Of a stretch of 20,000 nt of DNA, positions 2,923 to 20,000 are shown piece after piece. The stretch is from IMG/VR virus record IMGVR_UViG_3300044693_000067; one strand, written 5' to 3'. Every line of letters begins with the position of its first letter. Positions within the stretch are counted from its first letter, which is position 1. The translations under genes and the position numbers were made by a program. The notes under the pieces were generated by a model, which had not been told where the DNA came from, ran no database searches, and was given only the letters and a program-made list of their open reading frames with translations. Origin of the DNA: an uncultured virus (IMG/VR IMGVR_UViG_3300044693_000067) (Duplodnaviria; Heunggongvirae; Uroviricota; Caudoviricetes).

Positions 2923-3089
2923 CCTCTGAACTCCGCGTGCGCCAACGTTTCCAACAACTCCACCGCATCTTTGATCTCACTGACGAGATTCATGGCGCGC
3001 GGATTCTCGCGAAAGCCCTTGGCCGACGCTTCTTCTAGCTGGCTGTGCATATGCTTGATGCGGACGATCATTTCTGCTGTGTTGGTCAT
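2919..3089 (-). CDS. Hypothetical protein (56 aa)
   Basis: MTNTAEMIVRIKHMHSQLEEASAKGFRENPRAMNLVSEIKDAVELLETLARAEFRG; ATGA overlaps with both neighbours. Confidence 0.7.
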   Translation of the reverse strand: MTNTAEMIVRIKHMHSQLEEASAKGFRENPRAMNLVSEIKDAVELLETLAHAEFRG

Positions 3090-3592
3090 GCTGACTCCGA
3101 GTTCGATACGGCGATTTGTCGAGCGTCGTGCTCACGCGCTGCGTGCTCAGCCATGCCATTGCTATCGGCGATAGTCCAGTGTTTAGGGTCTTTGCTGGCG
3201 TGAAGTTCTTTCAGGCGCGCGACGTGTGGCGTCAGTGAGTCAAGGAATTCGATGTAGCCGCCTGCAACTTGACGGTCATCGTTGAGCATGCCGGCCGCTT
3301 GAGCGTCGACAAGAATCGCGATGCAGGCTAGGGCGTGGGCGAAGTGGGGAAGGCCGCTATCGACGTCGTAGTCCTGGCCCTCGAACCACTTGTCGAGGTG
3401 TCGTTTTGCTGCGTCAACATAGATCGACGCCCGCACACCAGCGACGCGCCAGTTTGATCGGCCATACTTGAGCATGCCGTCGAGCAGCCCAAGGCAACCG
3501 AGTGCGCTTGCTGTTGCCGGCCAAAGATGGAGCGGCAGCTTTCCTGCCCCGATAGCGTCCTTAGGATTTTCCGCATTCGTTGCCTTGAGCAT
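3086..3592 (-). CDS. dATP/dGTP diphosphohydrolase domain protein (DUF5664-like)
   Basis: NPKDAIGAGKLPLHL, G.LKYG..NWR, Y.DAAKRHL..WFEGQD.D.DSGLPHFAHA. Confidence 0.85.
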   Translation of the reverse strand: MLKATNAENPKDAIGAGKLPLHLWPATASALGCLGLLDGMLKYGRSNWRVAGVRASIYVDAAKRHLDKWFEGQDYDVDSGLPHFAHALACIAILVDAQAAGMLNDDRQVAGGYIEFLDSLTPHVARLKELHASKDPKHWTIADSNGMAEHAAREHDARQIAVSNSESA

Positions 3593-3906
3593 TACGCCGC
3601 CTCCGCGATCAGATCCATCAAGCCGAAGATTTCGAGGCCAAGTTTCTGCGCCGCAAGATGCTCAATGCGCGCACCAAATGACGCCTCCCATCCGGGCAAC
3701 ATGCAGATCGCCGTGCAGCCTTCCATCGCGCGCAGATCGGCGGCGATGCAATGCAGCCAATGCGCCGTTTCATCGGGATTGACTTCTACCGGGTTCACGA
3801 CTTCCCAGCGTAGGTTGCGAAGGCGCACTGCAGTTCGGTTAAAGAGCGGGAAATTGAACCGGTCGATCCCCGACATAGGACCACTGATGTAGATACGTCC
3901 TTTCAT
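3592..3906 (-). CDS. DUF4406 protein (nucleoside deoxyribosyltransferase-like fold)
   Basis: IYISGPMSG...NFPLF...VVNP...MLPGWEASFGARIE. Confidence 0.88.
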   Translation of the reverse strand: MKGRIYISGPMSGIDRFNFPLFNRTAVRLRNLRWEVVNPVEVNPDETAHWLHCIAADLRAMEGCTAICMLPGWEASFGARIEHLAAQKLGLEIFGLMDLIAEAA

Positions 3907-5542: not shown

Positions 5543-5953
5543 TCAGAAACCCATTCTTGTGAATTCGCGCGTTTGCCAAGCGAACCAAGGGAGCAATTCG
5601 ATCCCAAGAGACTTCGCTCGAGCCTTTCGCGTCGCCTCCGTCGCGTTGGCGGGAAAATCGAAATAGACTTGCGCGCCCGTCTTACGGTCGACGTCCCAAA
5701 GCGACAGCGACTTCGGGCACTCGTTGCGGATCGACTTCAGTTGCGCCGCCACGGGTTGCCCCTGACGAGCAAATGCAATCAAGTCCAGGCCAATGGCCCA
5801 GCGCCAGTCGTAATCGCGATCAGGGCGGGCATACACTGTGAACCCGTTATCCTCGTTCTCAATGCGGCCAATGAACGAGACGAGCACCCAAAGGGCAGGT
5901 TGCTTGCCTTGTTCGCGAAGGGCGGCGATTTGCGCTGCGTTGGCGGCCATCAC
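5543..5953 (-). CDS. Hypothetical protein between initiator and helicase
   Basis: Overlaps the initiator stop and ends 2 nt before the helicase start. Confidence 0.75.
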   Translation of the reverse strand: MMAANAAQIAALREQGKQPALWVLVSFIGRIENEDNGFTVYARPDRDYDWRWAIGLDLIAFARQGQPVAAQLKSIRNECPKSLSLWDVDRKTGAQVYFDFPANATEATRKARAKSLGIELLPWFAWQTREFTRMGF

Positions 5954-6591
5954 AGGTATTTCTCCCCGCCAGCCGACGATTTCGCCGGCTTGTCATTGAT
6001 CTTTGCCCAGTCATCACGGATGGCATTCATCAACGCCGAATCCCAGTTCGCGTAGGTGTAACCCTTCGCTTCAGCCTTGCTCACGAACGACTTGAAATGC
6101 TCATCAAGGCGATCAAAACCCTCTTTAGCCGCCCAATCGATAACCCGCTGACTTACGCAGAAACCTTCGGGCATGGCCGTTTTTGGAGTTTTCGTGCGCG
6201 TAGCGCTCTTACTCTTATCTTCTCTATTCTTATCTTCTCTACTCTGGGCCGTTTCAGTAACGTTACATGCCTGTTCCTGTAACTGTTTCTGTGCCTCGCG
6301 ATGCTTGCGAACCCGCTCTGTGCTTGAGTCAGACGCCTTTTGGCGCTTGTCCCACTGAAGGATCTCCCATCGCTCATCAATGAACTTTTTCTGCATGAAA
6401 AGGGCCTTCGTCTCCGCAAGCTGTGTTTCATCGATACGCAGTGCGAAACAGATGTCTTGTTCCTGTAACGTTTCAAGCGTGTTACTGCAACGGAAGCACA
6501 TCAGCATGATTAGCCGACGTTGCATCGCCTCCGACATGCTTTGCACTTTCGGATCGGTAGCGAACTCGTGATACAGGCGAAACCAATCCAT
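5950..6591 (-). CDS. Phage replication initiator / replisome organizer
   Basis: MDWFRLYHEFATDPKVQ N-terminus, STERVRKHRE, REDKNREDK linker, C-terminal helical domain (YANWDSALMNAIR); lies upstream of the helicase. Confidence 0.82.
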   Translation of the reverse strand: MDWFRLYHEFATDPKVQSMSEAMQRRLIMLMCFRCSNTLETLQEQDICFALRIDETQLAETKALFMQKKFIDERWEILQWDKRQKASDSSTERVRKHREAQKQLQEQACNVTETAQSREDKNREDKSKSATRTKTPKTAMPEGFCVSQRVIDWAAKEGFDRLDEHFKSFVSKAEAKGYTYANWDSALMNAIRDDWAKINDKPAKSSAGGEKYL

Positions 6592-6976: not shown

Positions 6977-7062
6977 CTCAGGTACTCCACCACCCAACAA
7001 AATGCCCATAGCGCAATACCAGCGGTTAGAGCGCCAGAGCAGAAGGCTATGAAGGTTTTCAT
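6973..7062 (-). CDS. Small membrane peptide (29 aa)
   Basis: MKTFIAFCSGALTAGIALWAFCWVVEYLR; ATGA overlaps at both ends. Confidence 0.55.
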   Translation of the reverse strand: MKTFIAFCSGALTAGIALWAFCWVVEYLR

Positions 7063-7811
7063 GCGGACTCCATCAAGAGATCGGCTTGGCGTTGACGCTC
7101 GGCGAGGAGCCCCTGATAGGCCGGGTTCAACTCGCATCCAGCAAAGTGACGGCCGAGCGTTCGAGCTGCGATGGCAGTCGACCCGCTGCCCATGAAAGGG
7201 TCGATGACGATCCCGCCGGCAGGAACGGAATAGCGAATCAGCGGCGCGACGATGCCGAGCGGCTTTTGCGTCGGATGCAATGCGTTGCCGTGCTCGTTCG
7301 CGACGTCAAGAACGCTGACCTGCAGGCGTGGGCCACCGTCTTCGCTCACGTAGTGGCCTGAGTCGATATATCCGGTATGGGTCGGGCGCGTCTTGCGGCG
7401 AACGGTCTTGGCCGCGGCATCCAGCGTGTATTGCGGGTCCTTGTAGACGTCAGCCCACGCGCCGCGGTAGAACTGCACTGCGTGCTCGTGAACGCGGCGG
7501 AATCGATCATTCTGGAAGCCGGTGCCGTTCTGCTTGCGCCATACGATGTCTTGCGCGTACTTGAAGCCGAACGATTCCATTTCGTCGAACAGCGTCGCCA
7601 CGAAACGCATACTGCCGAATACCCAGATCGATGCAGCGGGCTTGAGGACGCGCGATACGTGGACAATCCAGCCTTCGCAGCGTCGATCCCATTCAAGCGA
7701 CGTGTCGCCGTAGGGAGGATCTGTCACGCATGCCTCGGCGACACCTGCAGGCCATGCCGCCATGATCTGTCGGCAATCGCCAGGATGGCAGTGATCGAGC
7801 CAATCACTCAC
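7059..7811 (-). CDS. DNA amino-methyltransferase (N6-adenine/N4-cytosine, beta class)
   Basis: TDPPYG precedes HPTQKP and DPFMGSGST (motif IV before motif I, beta order); GTG start at 7811 likely. Confidence 0.93.
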   Translation of the reverse strand: MSDWLDHCHPGDCRQIMAAWPAGVAEACVTDPPYGDTSLEWDRRCEGWIVHVSRVLKPAASIWVFGSMRFVATLFDEMESFGFKYAQDIVWRKQNGTGFQNDRFRRVHEHAVQFYRGAWADVYKDPQYTLDAAAKTVRRKTRPTHTGYIDSGHYVSEDGGPRLQVSVLDVANEHGNALHPTQKPLGIVAPLIRYSVPAGGIVIDPFMGSGSTAIAARTLGRHFAGCELNPAYQGLLAERQRQADLLMESA

Positions 7812-7865
7812 AGCGCACCCCAAGGCATCCAAAGCATGTAGACAAACACGATCCACAGTCCCATC

Positions 7866-9531: not shown

Positions 9532-9606
9532 TACAAGCGTATTTGTAGCACAGACGCCGACGATCTACAAGCACATTTGAAGGTGCTTGATACAAAATCC
9601 TTTGTA
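9532..9606. promoter_or_regulatory. OR-like operator array: three TACAA-N6-TTG(T/A)A sites
   Basis: TACAAgcgtatTTGTA 9532-9547; TACAAgcacatTTGAA 9566-9581; TACAAaatcctTTGTA 9591-9606. Confidence 0.85.
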
Positions 9607-10394
9607 TGAAAACACTAGCCGACCGCCTTGCGTGGGCCATGAAGTGCGCCGGCCTTGATCCACACCAAAGTCAGAGTGAGCTTGCTCGACTAGTAGGAGC
9701 GCCATGCAGGGCGCAAAACATCCAGAGCATCCTCAGCGGTTCTCAGAAGACAAGCAAGTACACGCCGCGCATCGCCCAAGTTTTGGGGTGCGACGGTGTT
9801 TGGCTGGCAGAGGGAACAGGGAAAGCACCTACAAAGCGCAAGCACAATCTCGCACTTGTTGATGCATCGGGCATAAGCCAAGAAACACGTCAATTTGATG
9901 AATCATTTGCCGCGAACCCGGATAAGATTGGGACCACAAAGCCCCCCGGATTCGGAGAACTTGGACCGGCTAAACGAGTGGGGCGCAGAGAGATTCCACT
10001 TATAAGCTACGTGCAGGCCGGCATGATGACAGAAGCGATAGACCCATTTTCATTGGGCGAAGGATTTGAGACCATCCTGACCGATCAAGAGTGTTCCGAG
10101 CAGTCGTTCGCGCTGCGGATCAAGGGGAGGTCAATGCTGCCCCGTTTCGAGCCGGGGGATACGATCGTGATCGATCCCCAAAGGCAACCCAGGCCAGGCG
10201 ATTTCGTTGTCGCAAAGAACACGGAAGAAGAGGCGACATTTAAGAAGTACCGGCCTCGCGGTGTCAACGACCGCGGCGATGTCGTCTTCGAACTCGTCCC
10301 GTTGAACGAGGACTTCGCTACGCTGCACAGTGAGCGCGATCATCTACACATCATCGGGGTCGCGATAGAGCATCGCAAGCCGCTGCTCGAGTAA
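9606..10394 (+). CDS. cI: CI-like prophage repressor (HTH plus S24 LexA-type peptidase)
   Basis: N-terminal HTH (SQSELARLVG); IPLISYVQAG cleavage site; FALRIKGRSM catalytic Ser; ATFKKY catalytic Lys. Confidence 0.95.
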   Translation: MKTLADRLAWAMKCAGLDPHQSQSELARLVGAPCRAQNIQSILSGSQKTSKYTPRIAQVLGCDGVWLAEGTGKAPTKRKHNLALVDASGISQETRQFDESFAANPDKIGTTKPPGFGELGPAKRVGRREIPLISYVQAGMMTEAIDPFSLGEGFETILTDQECSEQSFALRIKGRSMLPRFEPGDTIVIDPQRQPRPGDFVVAKNTEEEATFKKYRPRGVNDRGDVVFELVPLNEDFATLHSERDHLHIIGVAIEHRKPLLE

Positions 10395-10417
10395 CCTCCT
10401 TCACGCCACCAAATAGG

Positions 10418-10441
10418 GCCCGCCATCAAGCGGGCTTTTTT
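10418..10441 (+). terminator. Rho-independent terminator after cI
   Basis: GCCCGC-catcaa-GCGGGC followed by TTTTTT. Confidence 0.85.
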
Positions 10442-10452
10442 GTGTCGCGCAT

Positions 10453-10505
10453 TACAAGGAAAATTGTAACAAGCACTTGCGACTACAAAGACGCTTGTAT
10501 ATGAT
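10453..10505 (+). promoter_or_regulatory. OL-like operators and PL-like sigma70 promoter
   Basis: TACAAggaaaaTTGTA 10453-10468 and TACAAagacgcTTGTA 10484-10499; -35 TTGCGA 10477-10482, 17 bp spacer, -10 TATGAT 10500-10505. Confidence 0.85.
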
Positions 10506-11200: not shown

Positions 11201-11345
11201 GAAATCCCGCTTCGGCGGCCATTGATAGACCTGTTCGTAGCGCAATGCCTACCGCATTGCAGTGCGAATAGCACGAAGTACCCGCGCATCGGCGCACCGC
11301 TCGTGACAGGAGCGGCGATCTTTAAAAACGTGGTGATTGAGTTTT

Positions 11346-11435
11346 GTCAGAGCGGGGCTCCTAGTAGGTGGACGCGCGGCCTTGATCGGGCCATTGATCA
11401 ACGCGACAGGTTCGAATCCTGTGGCCCGCTCTGAC
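11346..11435 (+). ncRNA. Degenerate tRNA-like element 1
   Basis: T-arm ACAGG-TTCGAAT-CCTGT (11406-11422); closing stem GTCAGAGCGGG/CCCGCTCTGAC; D and anticodon arms non-canonical; no CCA. Confidence 0.5.
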
Positions 11436-11688
11436 GACATTCGATCACTGCTTCATAGCGCGCGCCACGTAAGGCCAGAACACCGGAGATATCTGGCGCG
11501 CCGTTGTCCCTATGGTGGACCCGAGAAAGCAGAGTATCGCAACCATTCCGCGAATGCGGCACCGAATACAGCAACCGCTGGTGTAGAAAGCGGAGCGCCC
11601 GCAATAGTCACGCCGACAGGATCGGTGGTGGCGTTGCGGAAGGCGTGCGAGCCTGGGAGACAGACTGGGCTCGCACGCGAAGCAGTTT

Positions 11689-11813
11689 TCAGCGATGCCG
11701 TGGTGTAAGGAGCATGGCCGAGCGGCCCTCGGTAAGTAGCCTAGGCGGTTCGATTCCGCAATGTCTGGGGACATGGTGAACGGATCTGGTGCAAGTCCAG
11801 ACGGCATCGCTGA
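11689..11813 (+). ncRNA. Expanded tRNA-like element 2
   Basis: 12-bp closing stem TCAGCGATGCCG/CGGCATCGCTGA; D-arm-like TGGTGTAAGGAGCA; terminal T-arm TCTGG-TGCAAGT-CCAGA; second internal T-loop GCGG-TTCGATT-CCGC. Confidence 0.5.
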
Positions 11814-13219: not shown

Positions 13220-13474
13220 ATGAAACACCTTGCACTGATTTTCGTCATCGCAGCGCTTGCTGGATGTACCGACGCTGACCGCGCTCAACTCGGCGCGTTC
13301 GGCAATAAATTCGAAATCACGCTCTATTCGGCCAGCGGGTCTGTCATTAAGCAATGGCGATCCAATGGAAAGGTCCAGACGGAAGACCATAGCGATGGCT
13401 GGTACTTTATGGACGCGACAACTGGAAAGCTGGTTCGCGTGAGCGGAACAGTGGTTGTCGATCCATTGGATTGA
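13220..13474 (+). CDS. Putative lipoprotein
   Basis: MKH, hydrophobic stretch, lipobox LAG-C. Confidence 0.8.
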   Translation: MKHLALIFVIAALAGCTDADRAQLGAFGNKFEITLYSASGSVIKQWRSNGKVQTEDHSDGWYFMDATTGKLVRVSGTVVVDPLD

Positions 13475-13481
13475 GACCCTC

Positions 13482-13721
13482 ATGCAAACCATCGAAGAAC
13501 GCATCAAACCCATCATCGCCGAACAGTTCTGCGTTCCGGTCGATGAGGTCGATCTATCGGCCAACCTCGTCGAGAAGTACACCTCTGATTCGCTTGATCT
13601 CGTCGAACTGACGATTCAGGTCGAGGACGAGTTCGGCATGGAAGTGCCCGACGAAACAATGTGGGGCTTCTCGACCGGCCAGCAGATCATTGACTACGTT
13701 CGGGCGAACGTCAAAGCGTAA
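13482..13721 (+). CDS. acpP: Acyl carrier protein (AcpP-like)
   Basis: MQTIEERIKPIIAEQF...DSLDLVELTIQVEDEFGMEVPDE...TGQQIIDYV; phosphopantetheine Ser in DSL; acidic, 79 aa. Confidence 0.9.
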   Translation: MQTIEERIKPIIAEQFCVPVDEVDLSANLVEKYTSDSLDLVELTIQVEDEFGMEVPDETMWGFSTGQQIIDYVRANVKA

Positions 13722-15701: not shown

Positions 15702-15853
15702 ACAAGCTCGACCAGTGGGCGCGACGCCACCGCATTCTCGCCGGCATTGCCGCATTTCTAATCATCGCTGTCTGCCTTGAACTCGCGCATCGGATCGATC
15801 AAGAGAACGATTCGCGGGTGTATTGGCAGATGACATCGAGGGGTCAAACATGA
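15698..15853 (+). CDS. Small single-TM protein (51 aa)
   Basis: MNKLDQWARRHRILAGIAAFLIIAVCLELAHRID... Confidence 0.65.
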   Translation: MNKLDQWARRHRILAGIAAFLIIAVCLELAHRIDQENDSRVYWQMTSRGQT

Positions 15854-17133
15854 GCGAATCGAAAGAACTGACTCTGCCCGAACGCGCTGCAGTAGCGCTG
15901 GGCACGCCGAAGTACGAGCAGGAAATCCGCGAACTCGTCGCCAAGTCGGTAACGATCACGGAGGTAAAGAACAAGGACGGCCGCGAGCAATGCCACGGCG
16001 CGATGATGACCCTCAAGAACGCGCGGGTTGCCATCGAGAAAGCGGCGAAGGCGGCTCGCGAGGATGCGACGGCGTTTTCCAAGGCGGTTATCGCAGAAGA
16101 GAAGCGCCTTGTCGCGCTCGCGACGCCCGAGGAAACGCGACTGCAAGCGTTGCGCGACGCTTGGGATGAAGCAGAAGCCGCCGAAAAGGCTCGCAAGGCC
16201 GCTGAAGAAAAAGCGAAAGTTGACGCGATCCGAGCCAAAATCGACCAGATCAAGGATTCCATCGTCTTCGCGATGGGCAAGTCGGCCGCTGAGATTCAAG
16301 GCGCTATCGACGAACTCACGACGCATGAAATCACGCTTGAAGAATTCGGCGCGCTTGCTGGCGAAGCGCAGGTTGCCAAGGTCGCATCTCTGGCAAAGTT
16401 AGGCGAAGCATTGACCGCCCAGCAAGCGCACGAAGCCGAAACCGCCCGACTCGCCGCCGAACGCGAACAGTTGGAGCGAGCGCGGGCAGAAGCGGCAGAG
16501 CGGGAGCGCCAAGCCGCCGCCGAGCGTGCCCGTATCGATGGCATCAAAGAGCGTATCGCCCAGATCAAAGCGACGGTTGCTATGCAGGCAGGGAAGCCTT
16601 CGGCAAGCATTGAGTCGGCGATTAGCGCGCTGCAAGCGATGGGCATGGATGGGCTTGGCGAGTTTTTCGATGAAGCCGAAGAAGCCCGCCACGGCGCTAC
16701 CGTGGCTCTCGGTGAGATGGCCGCAACGATGCGCGCGCACGAGGCGCAGCAAGAGGAATTGAAGCGCCAGCAAGCCGAGTTAGCCAAGAAACAGGCCGAA
16801 CAGGAAGAACGCGAACGCATCGCCCGCGAAGCAGCGGAGGCCGAAGCAGAGCACAAGCGCAAAGAGGATGAGGCCCGCGCCGCTGCCGAAAAGCTCGAAA
16901 CGGACCACGCCGAGGCGCTGATCGAGAACGCGCGGATGGATGCGGAGCGGAAAGCGGCGGGTGAGCAGCGCGCAGCACAAGAGGAAAGCCTGCGCCGCCA
17001 GCAAGTCGAGTTCGAAGCAACCGGCCCCGAGGATTGGGAAATCGTACAGGTCGTCGCGGATCACTATGACGTGTCGACCGACGTCGCGCGTCATTGGTTG
17101 TCGCGGCATGTTTGGATGGAGAGAGCGGCGTGA
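15850..17133 (+). CDS. Long Ala/Glu-rich coiled-coil phage protein with internal duplication
   Basis: 427 aa from ATG 15850; heptad-rich; located upstream of recT. Confidence 0.8.
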   Translation: MSESKELTLPERAAVALGTPKYEQEIRELVAKSVTITEVKNKDGREQCHGAMMTLKNARVAIEKAAKAAREDATAFSKAVIAEEKRLVALATPEETRLQALRDAWDEAEAAEKARKAAEEKAKVDAIRAKIDQIKDSIVFAMGKSAAEIQGAIDELTTHEITLEEFGALAGEAQVAKVASLAKLGEALTAQQAHEAETARLAAEREQLERARAEAAERERQAAAERARIDGIKERIAQIKATVAMQAGKPSASIESAISALQAMGMDGLGEFFDEAEEARHGATVALGEMAATMRAHEAQQEELKRQQAELAKKQAEQEERERIAREAAEAEAEHKRKEDEARAAAEKLETDHAEALIENARMDAERKAAGEQRAAQEESLRRQQVEFEATGPEDWEIVQVVADHYDVSTDVARHWLSRHVWMERAA

Positions 17134-18158
17134 GTAACGCACTGCAGATTATCACCGACGAGATTTACGGCATCCGCCCTAGTTTTGAGGCCGTTGCCGT
17201 AGATCGCTCGATCAACTTCGAGCGCGAGGCCGGGTTCGCGATTCAAATCCTGTCAAACAACGACTACGCGTTGACCGTCGCCCTGAATAATCGGCAGTCG
17301 GTCATCGATGCAGTCACAAACGTTTCGGCAATCGGAATCAGCCTTAACCCGGCCAAGAAGCAGGCGTACTTGGTCCCGCGCGACAAGAAAATATGCCTTG
17401 ACCTCTCCTATATCGGGTTGCTCGACCTGGCAATTGCATCGGGTTCAATCATGTGGGGGCAGGCCGAACTCGTGAAGGAGACCGATGAATTCCGGCTGAA
17501 TGGATTCGACAAGCCGCCGACACATGAGCGTGCTCCGTTCGCAAAGAACCGCGGGGAAGTTGTCGGCGTGTATGTGGTTGCCAAGACTCACGATGGTGAC
17601 TACCTGACATGCACGATGACAATCGATGAGGTCAACGACATTCGTAATCGATCGAGCGCGTGGAAGGCGTATCTCGAAAAGAAGAAGTCCTGCCCATGGG
17701 TTACTGATCCAGGCGAAATGGCAAAGAAGACGGTCATCAAGCGCGCCTACAAAACTTGGCCGAAGACTGACCGCCTCGACAAGGCCATCCACTTCCTGAA
17801 CACGGAAGGCGACGAAGGGATTGAATCGATCCGACAGCAGACTCAGGCCGGATGCCCCGAGGAAGTCTTGTCATCGTGGTGCGCAAAGGCAAAGACGGCA
17901 CTCACTAAAGACGCGCTGACCAAGATTTGGACGGATGGCCTAGCGGTTATCAAACCGACGAAGGACATGCGCGCATACAACACGTTCAAGGATAAGGTCG
18001 CAGCGCGCGGAAAGGAACTGGACGCTCCGCCATCGGATGGCAAGACGATCGACGTCCAAGCAACCGAAGTGAAAGGTCGCGAACCAGGATCGGATGACGA
18101 GTTGCAGGCGGATTTCAATCGGCAGATGGCAAAGGAGGCCGCAAGTGCGAATCATTGA
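17130..18158 (+). CDS. recT: RecT-family single-strand annealing recombinase
   Basis: GISLNPAKKQAYLVPR, SYIGLLDLA, PWVTDPGEMAKKTVIKRAYKTWP; GTG start. Confidence 0.92.
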   Translation: MSNALQIITDEIYGIRPSFEAVAVDRSINFEREAGFAIQILSNNDYALTVALNNRQSVIDAVTNVSAIGISLNPAKKQAYLVPRDKKICLDLSYIGLLDLAIASGSIMWGQAELVKETDEFRLNGFDKPPTHERAPFAKNRGEVVGVYVVAKTHDGDYLTCTMTIDEVNDIRNRSSAWKAYLEKKKSCPWVTDPGEMAKKTVIKRAYKTWPKTDRLDKAIHFLNTEGDEGIESIRQQTQAGCPEEVLSSWCAKAKTALTKDALTKIWTDGLAVIKPTKDMRAYNTFKDKVAARGKELDAPPSDGKTIDVQATEVKGREPGSDDELQADFNRQMAKEAASANH

Positions 18159-18912
18159 ATGTGAGCAGGGTAGCCCTGAGTGGTTGCAGGCCCGTGCCGG
18201 GTGCATTACCGCCAGCATGTTCTCGACGGCGCGCAAGAAGGTTGGTTTGCTAGATGAGCGGCAATCTCAATTCGTATCCCTGCGCTTGGCCGGGGCACCT
18301 GAAAAAGCAGCCGCCGAGGCGGCGGGATACAAGGCAGTTCCGCGCTCTGACATCATTGAGCGCGCGTTGCGCGGCGAGAAGATCGGCGACTGGTCGGATG
18401 CGGCCAAAGACTACGCATTTCGCCTGGCTATCGAGCGCATCAGTGGAATGCCGCTAGATGAAGGATTCGAAACCTGGAGCATGAAACGCGGCCACGAACT
18501 CGAGCCGCAGGCCCGCATGGAGCACGAGTTGCAGACCGGCCTATTCGTCAAGCGCGCCGGTTTCGTGACAACGGACGACGGAATTTTCGGTGCAAGCGCC
18601 GACGGTCTTATCAACGACGACGGCGGTAGTGAATACAAATGCTTCGTCGATCCAGCGCGCCTTCGGGCCATCTATATGGATGACGACTTCTCAGAGATCG
18701 TCGACCAGGCAATGGGCTGTCTTTGGCTGACCGTGCGCTCATGGTGGCATACCTGCCTGTTTTGCCCAGCGCTTGAGCCGGTCGGAAAGCAACTCCGGTG
18801 GAGAGAGTTTAAGAGGGACGACGACTACATCGAGAAGATGGAATCTGACCTTTGGGAATTCGCGCAACTCGTGAACGAGTACGAGCACGCGCTTCGAAAG
18901 CAAGCTGCCTAA
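18145..18912 (+). CDS. YqaJ/lambda-exonuclease-family protein
   Basis: EQGSPEWLQARAGCITAS, MKRGHELEPQAR, GASADGLI, EYKC. Confidence 0.92.
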   Translation: MRIIECEQGSPEWLQARAGCITASMFSTARKKVGLLDERQSQFVSLRLAGAPEKAAAEAAGYKAVPRSDIIERALRGEKIGDWSDAAKDYAFRLAIERISGMPLDEGFETWSMKRGHELEPQARMEHELQTGLFVKRAGFVTTDDGIFGASADGLINDDGGSEYKCFVDPARLRAIYMDDDFSEIVDQAMGCLWLTVRSWWHTCLFCPALEPVGKQLRWREFKRDDDYIEKMESDLWEFAQLVNEYEHALRKQAA

Positions 18913-19065
18913 CCAAACCCCAACCCCACTAGCCACGATGTAGAGCCAATAGGCGCGCGGATCTCGTAGCTGGTGGGTGGAGGGGCCTAACTCTTTCCCT
19001 CGGAGCCGCTTAACGCGGCATTTTGTGCGCGGCCAGTATGGCGCGCCGCTTTTTTTGGAGAAATC

Positions 19066-19425
19066 ATGCAACAAATTCAACTGCCGCCGCTCGCCGAAGG
19101 CGAGGTTTATCTCGGTGGCTTCGTCGACGCGAACGGTGACGTCTCTCACACGATCCTGCTTCCTGGCGACAGAGATGGTGCCACATGGCAGGAACAGATG
19201 GACTGGGCCAAATCGATCGGCGGCGACCTGCCTAATCGCATCGAGCAGGCGATGCTTTACGCCTGCCACCGGGACCAGTTCAAGAAAGCCGCGTATTGGA
19301 GTAACACGATCGATGACGAGGTAGCCGCCTACGCCTGGTCTCAGGACTTCGGCTACGGCAACCAGAGCTGCTGCAGCCGCAGCAGCGACCTGCGCGCTCG
19401 GGCCGTCCGCAGATTAGCTCTTTAA
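19066..19425 (+). CDS. DGR target protein 1 (DUF1566/CLec-like, C-terminal variable region)
   Basis: GGAG RBS; TWQEQMDWAK...DLPNRIEQAML...AYWS...AWSQDFGYGNQ...RARAVRR. Confidence 0.88.
   Translation: MQQIQLPPLAEGEVYLGGFVDANGDVSHTILLPGDRDGATWQEQMDWAKSIGGDLPNRIEQAMLYACHRDQFKKAAYWSNTIDDEVAAYAWSQDFGYGNQSCCSRSSDLRARAVRRLAL
19324..19415 (+). repeat. DGR variable repeat VR1 with IMH-like 3' end
   Basis: Gap-free 92-nt match to 19809-19900; 19 mismatches, none at codon position 3. Confidence 0.88.
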
Positions 19426-19454
19426 TTATTCAGTCATTTAAACGGAGGGACGCA

Positions 19455-19919
19455 ATGACGATCACGCTGGAACATATCGAGGCGGAACACTCGCGTATCG
19501 CCGCCTTGATCGAGCAATTCAAAAAGCAGCCGAAGGCGACCGAGTATCACGTGGACGCGGCGACGATTCCACTCGCGGCCGGGGAGCGCTTCGCAGGACC
19601 GATCTTGAATGACGACGGCACGCTGAGCCATTACCTGATTCTGTTGCCGGGTCAAACGGAAGACGTAAGCTGGGATAACGCGAAGGTATGGGCCGCTAAG
19701 CAAGGCGGGGAGTTGCCGACTCGTCGCGAGCAATCGCTCCTGTTTTCCAACTTGAAGCACCAGTTCGACGAGCGAGCCTATTGGTCGTGCGAACAATACG
19801 CGGGAAACGACGCCTGCGCCTGGTGTCAGTACTTCGACGGCGGCAGCCAGTTCTACGACGGCCGCTACGGCACCCTGCGCGCTCGGGCCGTCCGCAGATT
19901 TATTCCTTCAGTAATTTGA
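19455..19919 (+). CDS. DGR target protein 2 (DUF1566/CLec-like, paralog of target 1 with N-terminal helical extension)
   Basis: GGAGG RBS; SWDNAKVWA...ELPTRREQSLL...AYWS...AWCQYFDGGSQ...RARAVRR. Confidence 0.88.
   Translation: MTITLEHIEAEHSRIAALIEQFKKQPKATEYHVDAATIPLAAGERFAGPILNDDGTLSHYLILLPGQTEDVSWDNAKVWAAKQGGELPTRREQSLLFSNLKHQFDERAYWSCEQYAGNDACAWCQYFDGGSQFYDGRYGTLRARAVRRFIPSVI
19809..19900 (+). repeat. DGR variable repeat VR2 with IMH-like 3' end
   Basis: See VR1; identical tail CCTGCGCGCTCGGGCCGTCCGCAGATT (19874-19900 = 19389-19415). Confidence 0.88.
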
Positions 19920-19934
19920 CAATTTAAATCCAAC

Positions 19935-20000
19935 GTGGCCTTGCATACTCAACTCCCGATTTATCGAGCGGCCTACGGATTGCTCGATGTCGTGACTGAT
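19935..20000 (+). CDS. Avd-like four-helix-bundle protein (DGR accessory), partial
   Basis: GTG start, MALHTQLPIYRAAYGLLDVVTD, truncated at the edge; LPIY..AY.L resembles Avd/four-helix-bundle N-termini; directly follows the VR-bearing genes. Confidence 0.7.
   Translation, partial: MALHTQLPIYRAAYGLLDVVTD

Follow-up and report, generated by a model that had tools for sequence, protein, structure and literature searches.

The window analysed here is a stretch of 20,000 nucleotides from an uncultured virus of the class Caudoviricetes (IMG/VR record IMGVR_UViG_3300044693_000067), and our subject is a probable diversity-generating retroelement (DGR) that the window cuts at its right-hand end. Two genes lie there in tandem on the plus strand, target gene 1 (19066..19425, 119 aa) and target gene 2 (19455..19919, 154 aa), and both open reading frames (ORFs) are intact. 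They are followed on the same strand by the first 22 codons of an avd gene, which opens with a GTG start and is cut at the window end (19935..20000). Target 1 appears to be a bare domain of the DUF1566/Lcl_C type with a C-type-lectin fold and no N-terminal extension, whereas target 2 has an N-terminal helix (residues 5–23) followed by a domain of the same type.

Near their 3' ends the two genes carry a pair of repeats that we read as variable repeats (VRs). VR1 (19324..19415, plus strand) forms the 3' end of target 1 and VR2 (19809..19900, plus strand) lies near the 3' end of target 2. The two align without gaps over 92 nt, with 19 mismatches spread over 14 codons, and in the frames of the two target ORFs (19066-19425 and 19455-19919) all 19 mismatches fall at codon positions 1 and 2. 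Thirteen of the variable codons have the form NNC and one has the form NNT (TCT/TGT). Past the last mismatch (19388 in VR1, 19873 in VR2) the repeats are identical over 27 nt and end in GCCGTCCGCAGATT. These GC-rich invariant tails (19389..19415 and 19874..19900, both on the plus strand) resemble an initiation of mutagenic homing (IMH) element, and 23 of their 27 nucleotides are identical to the equivalent tail in Burkholderia phage Magia. Our realignment reproduced every element of this match as a preliminary description of the DNA had given it. That description also called the genes tandem paralogues with diverged bodies, and indeed their products share 42% protein identity over 111 residues, and the nucleotide identity between the genes is 49% in the bodies compared to 78% in the repeat.

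Third codon positions are identical in 30 of the 31 codons of the repeat, compared to 27 of 79 in the aligned gene bodies (Fisher p 3.7e-10). For mismatches scattered without regard to codon position, the probability that none of the 19 would hit position 3 is (2/3)^19, or 4.5e-4. A search of the window with the 22-nt VR tail, allowing up to three mismatches, found exactly two copies, with none expected from 200 shuffles; the same search gave no third VR and no template repeat (TR) within the window. Because of the third-position contrast with the gene bodies, and because the tail is found exactly twice, we regard the repeat pattern as real and far from chance. Gene conversion between the 3' ends of the two paralogues, combined with positive selection on a binding surface, is another way in which such a pair of repeats could arise, and it would suit a window that holds only two copies and no template. 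However, it leaves unexplained why 19 of 19 changes fall at positions 1 and 2 of NNC or NNT codons.

The gene that follows the targets bears on the same question. An Avd-like ORF had been proposed to begin at 19935, and a GTG-start ORF is found there, with 19 of 21 residues identical to the N-terminus of the Avd-like protein of Magia (gp45). The complete Magia protein matches the Pfam family bAvd with 49.5 bits, above the gathering score of 40, and the NCBIfam model DivGenRetAVD with 53 bits, under its cut-off of 80.

Relatives that carry the whole cassette were found by tblastn of target 2 against phage records. Eleven records matched, seven of them with at least 80% query coverage, and the matches include Burkholderia phages Magia, vB_E192a and vB_PL1, Shewanella phage vB_Sb_QDWS and 'Hujiaoplasma phage zrk29-1'. 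We compared five relative loci with the window: Magia, vB_E192a, vB_Sb_QDWS, IMGVR_UViG_3300038443_000654 (L003) and IMGVR_UViG_2617271008_000003 (L004). The order target 1, target 2, avd, TR and reverse transcriptase (RT) gene is found in all five. In Magia (MT701587) the genes run from RecT, through others, to a regulator, a terminator, gene 47, gene 46, the Avd-like protein and the RT, with an integrase further on; gene 47 encodes 120 aa and is annotated 'lectin fold domain protein; potential DGR target', and gene 46 encodes 154 aa and is annotated 'hypothetical protein'. Positions 19066-20000 of the window are 72% identical to Magia in nucleotide sequence, and target 2 is 66% identical to the 154-aa Magia target in protein sequence. 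Nucleotide identity to Magia falls to 53% at 19000-19065, compared to 73% in the body of target 1 (against gene 47).

The RT of Magia has an RVT_1 domain with YVDD and the sequence IGNLSSQ, and its closest solved structure is 8ub7 (E 7e-35), which we take to be the BPP-1 DGR reverse transcriptase; a literature search on '8UB7' gave no paper that would confirm this. The RT of L003 also matches RVT_1. IGNLSSQ is a form of the (I/V/L)GxxxSQ motif, which is described in the relevant part of one report as a hallmark of DGR RTs (PMC3521204). NCBIfam searches with the RTs of the relatives gave only sub-threshold matches, to other RT classes, and no model claims an RT.

In each of the five relative loci a single AAC-rich copy of the repeat separates avd from the RT gene, and we identify this copy as the TR. 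It ends in CAGATCG, compared to CAGATT at the ends of the VRs (CAGGTT in one VR of L004). Over the 91-nt repeat, 127 of the 129 mismatches between TR and VR in eleven ungapped pairs from the five relatives lie at TR adenines; a twelfth pair, from L003 (VR at 5946), contains an indel and was excluded from this count. The window repeats can be laid on the Magia TR, which has 27 adenines in 91 nt, and 15 of the 19 sites at which VR1 and VR2 differ are adenines there.

Several features of the relatives were seen along the way. Gene 46 of Magia (7001-7465) carries a full VR, with 11 of 11 mismatches to the TR at adenines; because this gene comes in addition to the two targets named in the genome paper, genes 47 and 57, Magia has three targets, not two. 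In L003 the VR of the target 1 homologue (ending near 5958) agrees with the TR for only ~49 nt at its end and loses register before that, as an indel would leave it; the ORF (5605-5976) is open. The TR of L004 (~6999-7089) has 23 adenines compared to 26–27 elsewhere, with GAC in place of the AAC of the others, and both L004 VRs share those G's, so that this template looks partly eroded or overwritten.

The relatives also bear on the matter of gene conversion. In addition to the codon pattern, conversion with selection would leave unexplained that 15 of the 19 variable sites are adenines of the Magia TR, that an avd gene adjoins the repeats, and that the syntenic cassettes show the same adenine-specific pattern. 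We therefore rejected it, on the grounds of the codon pattern, the Magia TR adenines, avd and the TR-VR pairs of the relatives, and would now give an origin of this kind almost no weight.

A pair of records from one of the relatives suggests that such a cassette has been at work recently. OK094664 (vB_Sb_QDWS) and OP650936 (zrk29-1) are each 47,902 bp long and, once brought into register by rotation and reverse complementing, disagree at 31 positions. Of these differences, 27 lie within two VRs, 26 of them at TR adenines: the VR of the target 1 homologue has 14, all at TR adenines, and 13 more, 12 of which are at TR adenines, fall in the VR of gp65, a third target that lies at a distance, on the upstream side of RecT. 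The four other differences are scattered elsewhere, and the TR and the VR of the target 2 homologue are identical between the two records. Judged from the sequences, this pattern is what recent mutagenic retrohoming would be expected to leave. The pair thus offers a natural before-and-after view of retrohoming at two of three targets, and a tractable experimental system. The same 47,902-bp phage is recorded under two stated hosts, Shewanella and Hujiaoplasma (the latter in a record marked UNVERIFIED_ORG), and its DGR cassette is 88% identical in DNA to those of Burkholderia phages. For these reasons at least one of the host labels is doubtful.

Taken together, these comparisons lead us to propose that the repeats are the VRs of a genuine phage-borne, multi-target DGR, cut by the window end, a reading to which we assign a probability of roughly nine in ten. 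The DGR mechanism is established for Bordetella phage BPP-1 and is carried over by inference to the window cassette. The cassette would have the order target 1, target 2, avd, TR and RT gene, of which the two targets and the opening 22 codons of avd fall within the window. If the layout is that of the five syntenic relatives, the TR would be found ~450–550 nt beyond the last base of the window, with avd on one side and the RT gene on the other, and it is predicted to have an adenine at each of the 19 sites where the two VRs disagree, mostly in AAC codons. Its RNA would be reverse-transcribed by the DGR RT together with Avd, with adenines miscopied, and the cDNA would replace the VR as far as the GC-rich IMH tail. 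In this way the residues displayed on the constant C-type-lectin scaffold would be drawn at random for each target separately.

A number of observations weigh against this proposal. The window stops at base 20000, before the TR and the RT gene, both of which are known from relatives only. A longer copy of the window genome was not found: none of the viral, metagenome or genome contigs searched contains the 26-mer of the VR tail as an exact match. Megablast of 18000-20000 against phages likewise gave no match, and a protein-guided scan of genome contigs gave no relative. The evidence for activity comes from the pair OK094664/OP650936, which represents a relative of the window phage. Four of the 19 variable sites in the window (19325, 19331, 19375 and 19387) are not adenine in the TR of any relative. 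A stem-loop downstream of the VR has been described for BPP-1 and is not universal among DGRs; in the window, folds of 76 nt of DNA across the ends of the two VRs are at the level of shuffled sequences (z 0.30 and 0.10). The ends of the Magia VR and TR also fold no better than shuffles. Finally, both targets miss the gathering score of 34.9 for the Pfam family Lcl_C (PF07603), target 1 with 26.3 bits (E 9.4e-6) and target 2 with 23.5 bits (E 7e-5).

At each of the four sites that are not adenine in the relatives, one of the two window VRs retains an A. Because there are variable sites without an A in any relative's TR, the TR of the window phage must differ from theirs, and the four sites fit a window template with extra adenines at these places. 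As the TR and RT of the window genome lie beyond base 20000, the assignment to DGRs rests on the internal repeat signature, the start of avd and the close synteny with the relatives. The preliminary description had placed one DGR here, with two targets, Avd next to them and the TR and RT just past the window; with the same gene order and adenine-specific mismatches in five relatives, this is strongly, though indirectly, supported.

The missing right-hand side also leaves room for a decayed DGR, in which the VRs and the start of avd would be relics and the TR or RT beyond the window would have been lost or become inactive. That neither of the latter has been seen for the window genome would agree with decay, as would the erosion in relatives, namely the L004 template with its 23 adenines and GAC for AAC and the L003 VR with its indel. 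However, the two target ORFs are open throughout, the 27-nt tails have stayed identical, the start of avd is intact and conserved, a TR and an RT are kept in all five relatives that could be read, and one relative shows recent adenine-specific change. We consider decay improbable and retain the proposal of a DGR whose template and RT lie just beyond the window.

The target proteins themselves were next compared to known families and folds. A protein search with target 2 gave 979 homologues of similar length, and nearly all of the named proteins among the 120 homologues listed are from Burkholderia or Paraburkholderia and are called 'DUF1566 domain-containing protein'. Some close homologues of target 2 carry a precomputed PF07603 match, and no NCBIfam model claims either target. 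Only two longer relatives were found, one of which was examined and proved to be a fusion with the domain at its N-terminus and the extra part at its C-terminus. Because there are only these two against 979 of similar length, the family is essentially a standalone one. The sequence cluster that contains the window's target 2 has three members, which may be VR variants.

We aligned 114 of the 120 listed homologues, having excluded six (P0024, P0038, P0055, P0082, P0088 and P0092) for partial coverage or odd length. In this alignment the entropy is ~3 bits at 10 of the 14 residues at which VR1 and VR2 disagree, and at 9 of the 11 other residues within 118–142 it does not exceed 0.73 bits. Among the scaffold positions that lie between the variable ones, W123, Q125, G130 and Q132 do not vary at all, and F127 hardly does. 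The residues that are hypervariable across the family coincide with those that differ between VR1 and VR2.

An AlphaFold2 model of target 2, built from the 114-protein alignment, has a mean pLDDT (predicted local distance difference test) of 91.2 and consists of the helix 5–23 and a mixed alpha/beta domain. Its top Foldseek match in the PDB is 8q4e, the C-terminal domain of Legionella Lcl (E 3.6e-5, TM (template modelling) scores 0.56/0.64, 24% identity), followed by dozens of C-type lectin domains with a Foldseek probability of ~1.0. A profile search of solved structures gave 8q4e as its sole match (E 0.006). Collectins and tetranectin align to target 2 through their neck helix, and a Bdellovibrio fibre tip is also among the PDB matches. 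In a viral fold library the best matches are phage DUF1566 proteins, some short and others long and fibre-like, the latter including one of 594 aa that has a Peptidase S74 domain and another of 1034 aa that has collagen repeats. The C-type-lectin fold of target 2 is thus supported by structure prediction and Foldseek, and in the model the VR forms part of the domain. The helix of target 2 is absent from target 1. A simple hydropathy scan found no hydrophobic N-terminus, lipobox or membrane-span-like segment in either target.

The window is from a temperate, lambdoid-style phage or prophage. Genes for a helicase loader, a DnaB-type helicase, NinB, NinG and two DNA methyltransferases lie on the minus strand. 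The plus strand carries a CI-type S24 repressor gene (9606-10394) at the head of its operon, with a terminator-like hairpin (10415-10438) and a promoter-like site (10477-10505), both on the plus strand, 3' of the repressor gene, and then a long run of small genes up to the genes for a RecT annealing protein (17094-18158, plus strand; Pfam RecT 1.5e-28) and a YqaJ-type exonuclease (18094-18912, plus strand; Pfam YqaJ 7.5e-10), a pair assigned to PHROG 148/149. These locations agree with the earlier statement that the targets sit after recT and the exonuclease gene; both lie directly upstream, and the repressor gene is on the same strand. At the left edge of the cassette, in the gap that separates the stop codon of the exonuclease gene (18912) from target 1, are two hairpins on the plus strand (19005..19058), the second followed by TTTTTTT, which form a possible intrinsic terminator just upstream of the ribosome-binding site of target 1. 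Both are present in the computed fold, although its energy is no better than that of shuffles (z -0.23), and the Magia annotation has a terminator at the equivalent spot. Because of this terminator-like pair, simple co-transcription of the targets from the CI-controlled promoter is something we can only infer.

In all six loci (the window and the five relatives) the cassette is on the strand of the early-left arm. It follows repressor or recombination genes wherever the upstream side is visible and precedes the integrase wherever the downstream side is visible. In vB_Sb_QDWS a Gam-like 'host nuclease inhibitor' gene follows the RT gene, and the tail genes come past the integrase and are encoded by the opposite strand. 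The best matches of the window RecT are Yersinia phage proteins, at 51% identity, and the helicase is ~41% identical to those of lambdoid enterobacterial phages. Because the cassette is 72% identical to Magia in DNA while RecT and the helicase reach only 41–51% identity in protein, it would seem to be mobile between unrelated temperate phages, and from these comparisons it looks like a horizontally exchanged module.

Some other features of the window can be noted here. An Rfam scan of the window gave no family that reaches its gathering score. ARAGORN places a tRNA-Ile (GAT) at 11354-11431 on the plus strand, within the early gene run, where it overlaps the ORF 11337-11708. An acyl-carrier-protein-like gene (13455-13721, plus strand; Pfam PP-binding 2.4e-11, PHROG 5934) lies among the small early genes. 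The 436-aa protein encoded at 15823-17133 on the plus strand, which adjoins RecT on its upstream side, has PHROG 21091, a family of unknown function, as its sole match (4.4e-49), in addition to a weak sub-threshold one to UDG. On the minus strand, at 3086-3906, 409-1716 and 7059-7856, a dATP/dGTP diphosphohydrolase-like gene beside a DUF4406 (nucleoside 2-deoxyribosyltransferase-like) gene and the two DNA methyltransferase genes may together form a nucleotide or DNA-modification set.

What the targets do is a separate question from how they are diversified. Their position in the early-left arm and the lack of any anchor on target 1 lead us to lean towards a non-structural, soluble binder, and we tentatively picture the targets as standalone soluble ligand-binding domains made in the cytoplasm. 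A non-structural role tied to the early or accessory arm has, in our estimate, not quite an even chance. An appreciable though smaller chance falls to a role outside the cell, in which the targets would act as host-recognition or adhesion proteins, either bound to the virion or released at lysis, like Mtd of BPP-1. The fibre-like phage proteins among the fold matches, with their Peptidase S74 domain or collagen repeats, speak for such a role, as does the neck-helix-plus-lectin shape that target 2 shares with collectins and tetranectin, which align through the helix, and the match to the Bdellovibrio fibre tip. Nor would the absence of signal peptides be an obstacle, since virion proteins carry none either. 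Viral DGR targets in clades 1, 4 and 6 are, moreover, mostly tail-structure proteins according to the annotation in one section of a survey (PMC8144416). However, the genes belong to the early-left arm, on the stretch from the recombination genes to the integrase, and in the two relatives for which a full map exists they share neither strand nor unit with the tail genes. Target 1 is a bare domain that lacks any part to anchor it, and the near absence of longer relatives, with the one fusion bearing its extra part at the C-terminus, also argues against attachment to a virion. Within the non-structural role that we lean towards, a more specific idea is that the targets serve in the cytoplasm as hypervariable binders, which the early-left arm encodes and which the phage would diversify to neutralise variable host proteins such as defence systems. 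This we regard as unlikely, and a literature search of titles and abstract openings, which was not exhaustive, gave no paper proposing DGR-diversified anti-defence proteins in phage early operons.

The closest known system is the DGR of Magia. Like the window, as far as the window's avd start allows the comparison, it has a 120-aa target, a 154-aa target, avd, TR and RT, on the same strand and side of the early recombination genes and upstream of the integrase. It differs in that its cassette follows an AAA ATPase gene and a regulator, whereas the window cassette directly follows the RecT and YqaJ exonuclease genes, and in that it has a remote third VR in gene 57, compared to none found within the window. 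The window VRs also differ from each other at the four sites that are not adenine in the Magia TR. The Magia genome announcement already described a potential DGR with an RT, Avd and short targets, and named genes 47 and 57 as the targets (Gafford-Gaby et al. 2021, PMC7883833).

The DGR of BPP-1 (mtd-avd-TR-brt), the paradigm of such systems, shares with the relatives, and with the window as far as its cassette reaches, the order target, avd, TR and RT, a C-terminal VR in a protein with a C-type-lectin fold, adenine-specific change in AAY codons and a GC-rich, IMH-like end of the VR. In contrast, BPP-1 has one target, a tail-fibre-tip protein, and its cassette is at the end of the tail genes, whereas the window family has two or three targets, which in the window are standalone DUF1566-type domains of 119–154 aa, and its cassette is in the early-left arm. 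BPP-1 also has an element downstream of its VR, whereas the window VRs have no hairpin above the level of shuffles. The C-terminal domain of Legionella pneumophila Lcl (8q4e) resembles target 2 in fold only, and to our knowledge Lcl is not a DGR target. Targets of the DUF1566/CLec2 class, such as Legionella LdtA and the tandem targets of Stenotrophomonas sp. SKA14, are like those of the window in having a weak DUF1566 match over the VR, as described in parts of two surveys (PMC5758913, PMC6642488). LdtA is a surface lipoprotein in the first of these accounts (PMC5758913), whereas the window targets have neither a lipobox nor a signal-like N-terminus.

The surveys also bear on novelty. Within the text that deals with this class, Wu et al. 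(2018, PMC5758913) assign 14% of DGRs to the DUF1566 type, with about half of the targets being short proteins that consist of the DUF1566 domain alone. Several targets or VRs are reported in passages of the two surveys for ~15% of DGRs, or for 28.6% in the second (Wu et al. 2018, PMC5758913; Yan et al. 2019, PMC6642488). The preliminary description had called the targets unusual. They are indeed small, without signal peptides and placed after recombination genes, but they are not new in these respects, as the Magia cassette has the same place and the surveys record short DUF1566 targets and multi-target DGRs. Because the cassette was already annotated in Magia and targets of this type are documented in DGR surveys, it is real and not a new kind, multi-target DGRs and short DUF1566-only targets being already in print.

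As a DGR the window cassette thus adds little that is new. What is worth keeping is its placement in the early-left arm in six loci, a backbone unrelated to that of Magia, and target domains that are free and unanchored. These are hypervariable lectin folds that a phage would make without an anchor, and the cassette family could show what they bind. If the counter-defence idea, which we have graded as unlikely, were true, the DGR would serve adaptive counter-defence or host takeover, not receptor switching, and would do so as a portable module among unrelated temperate phages.

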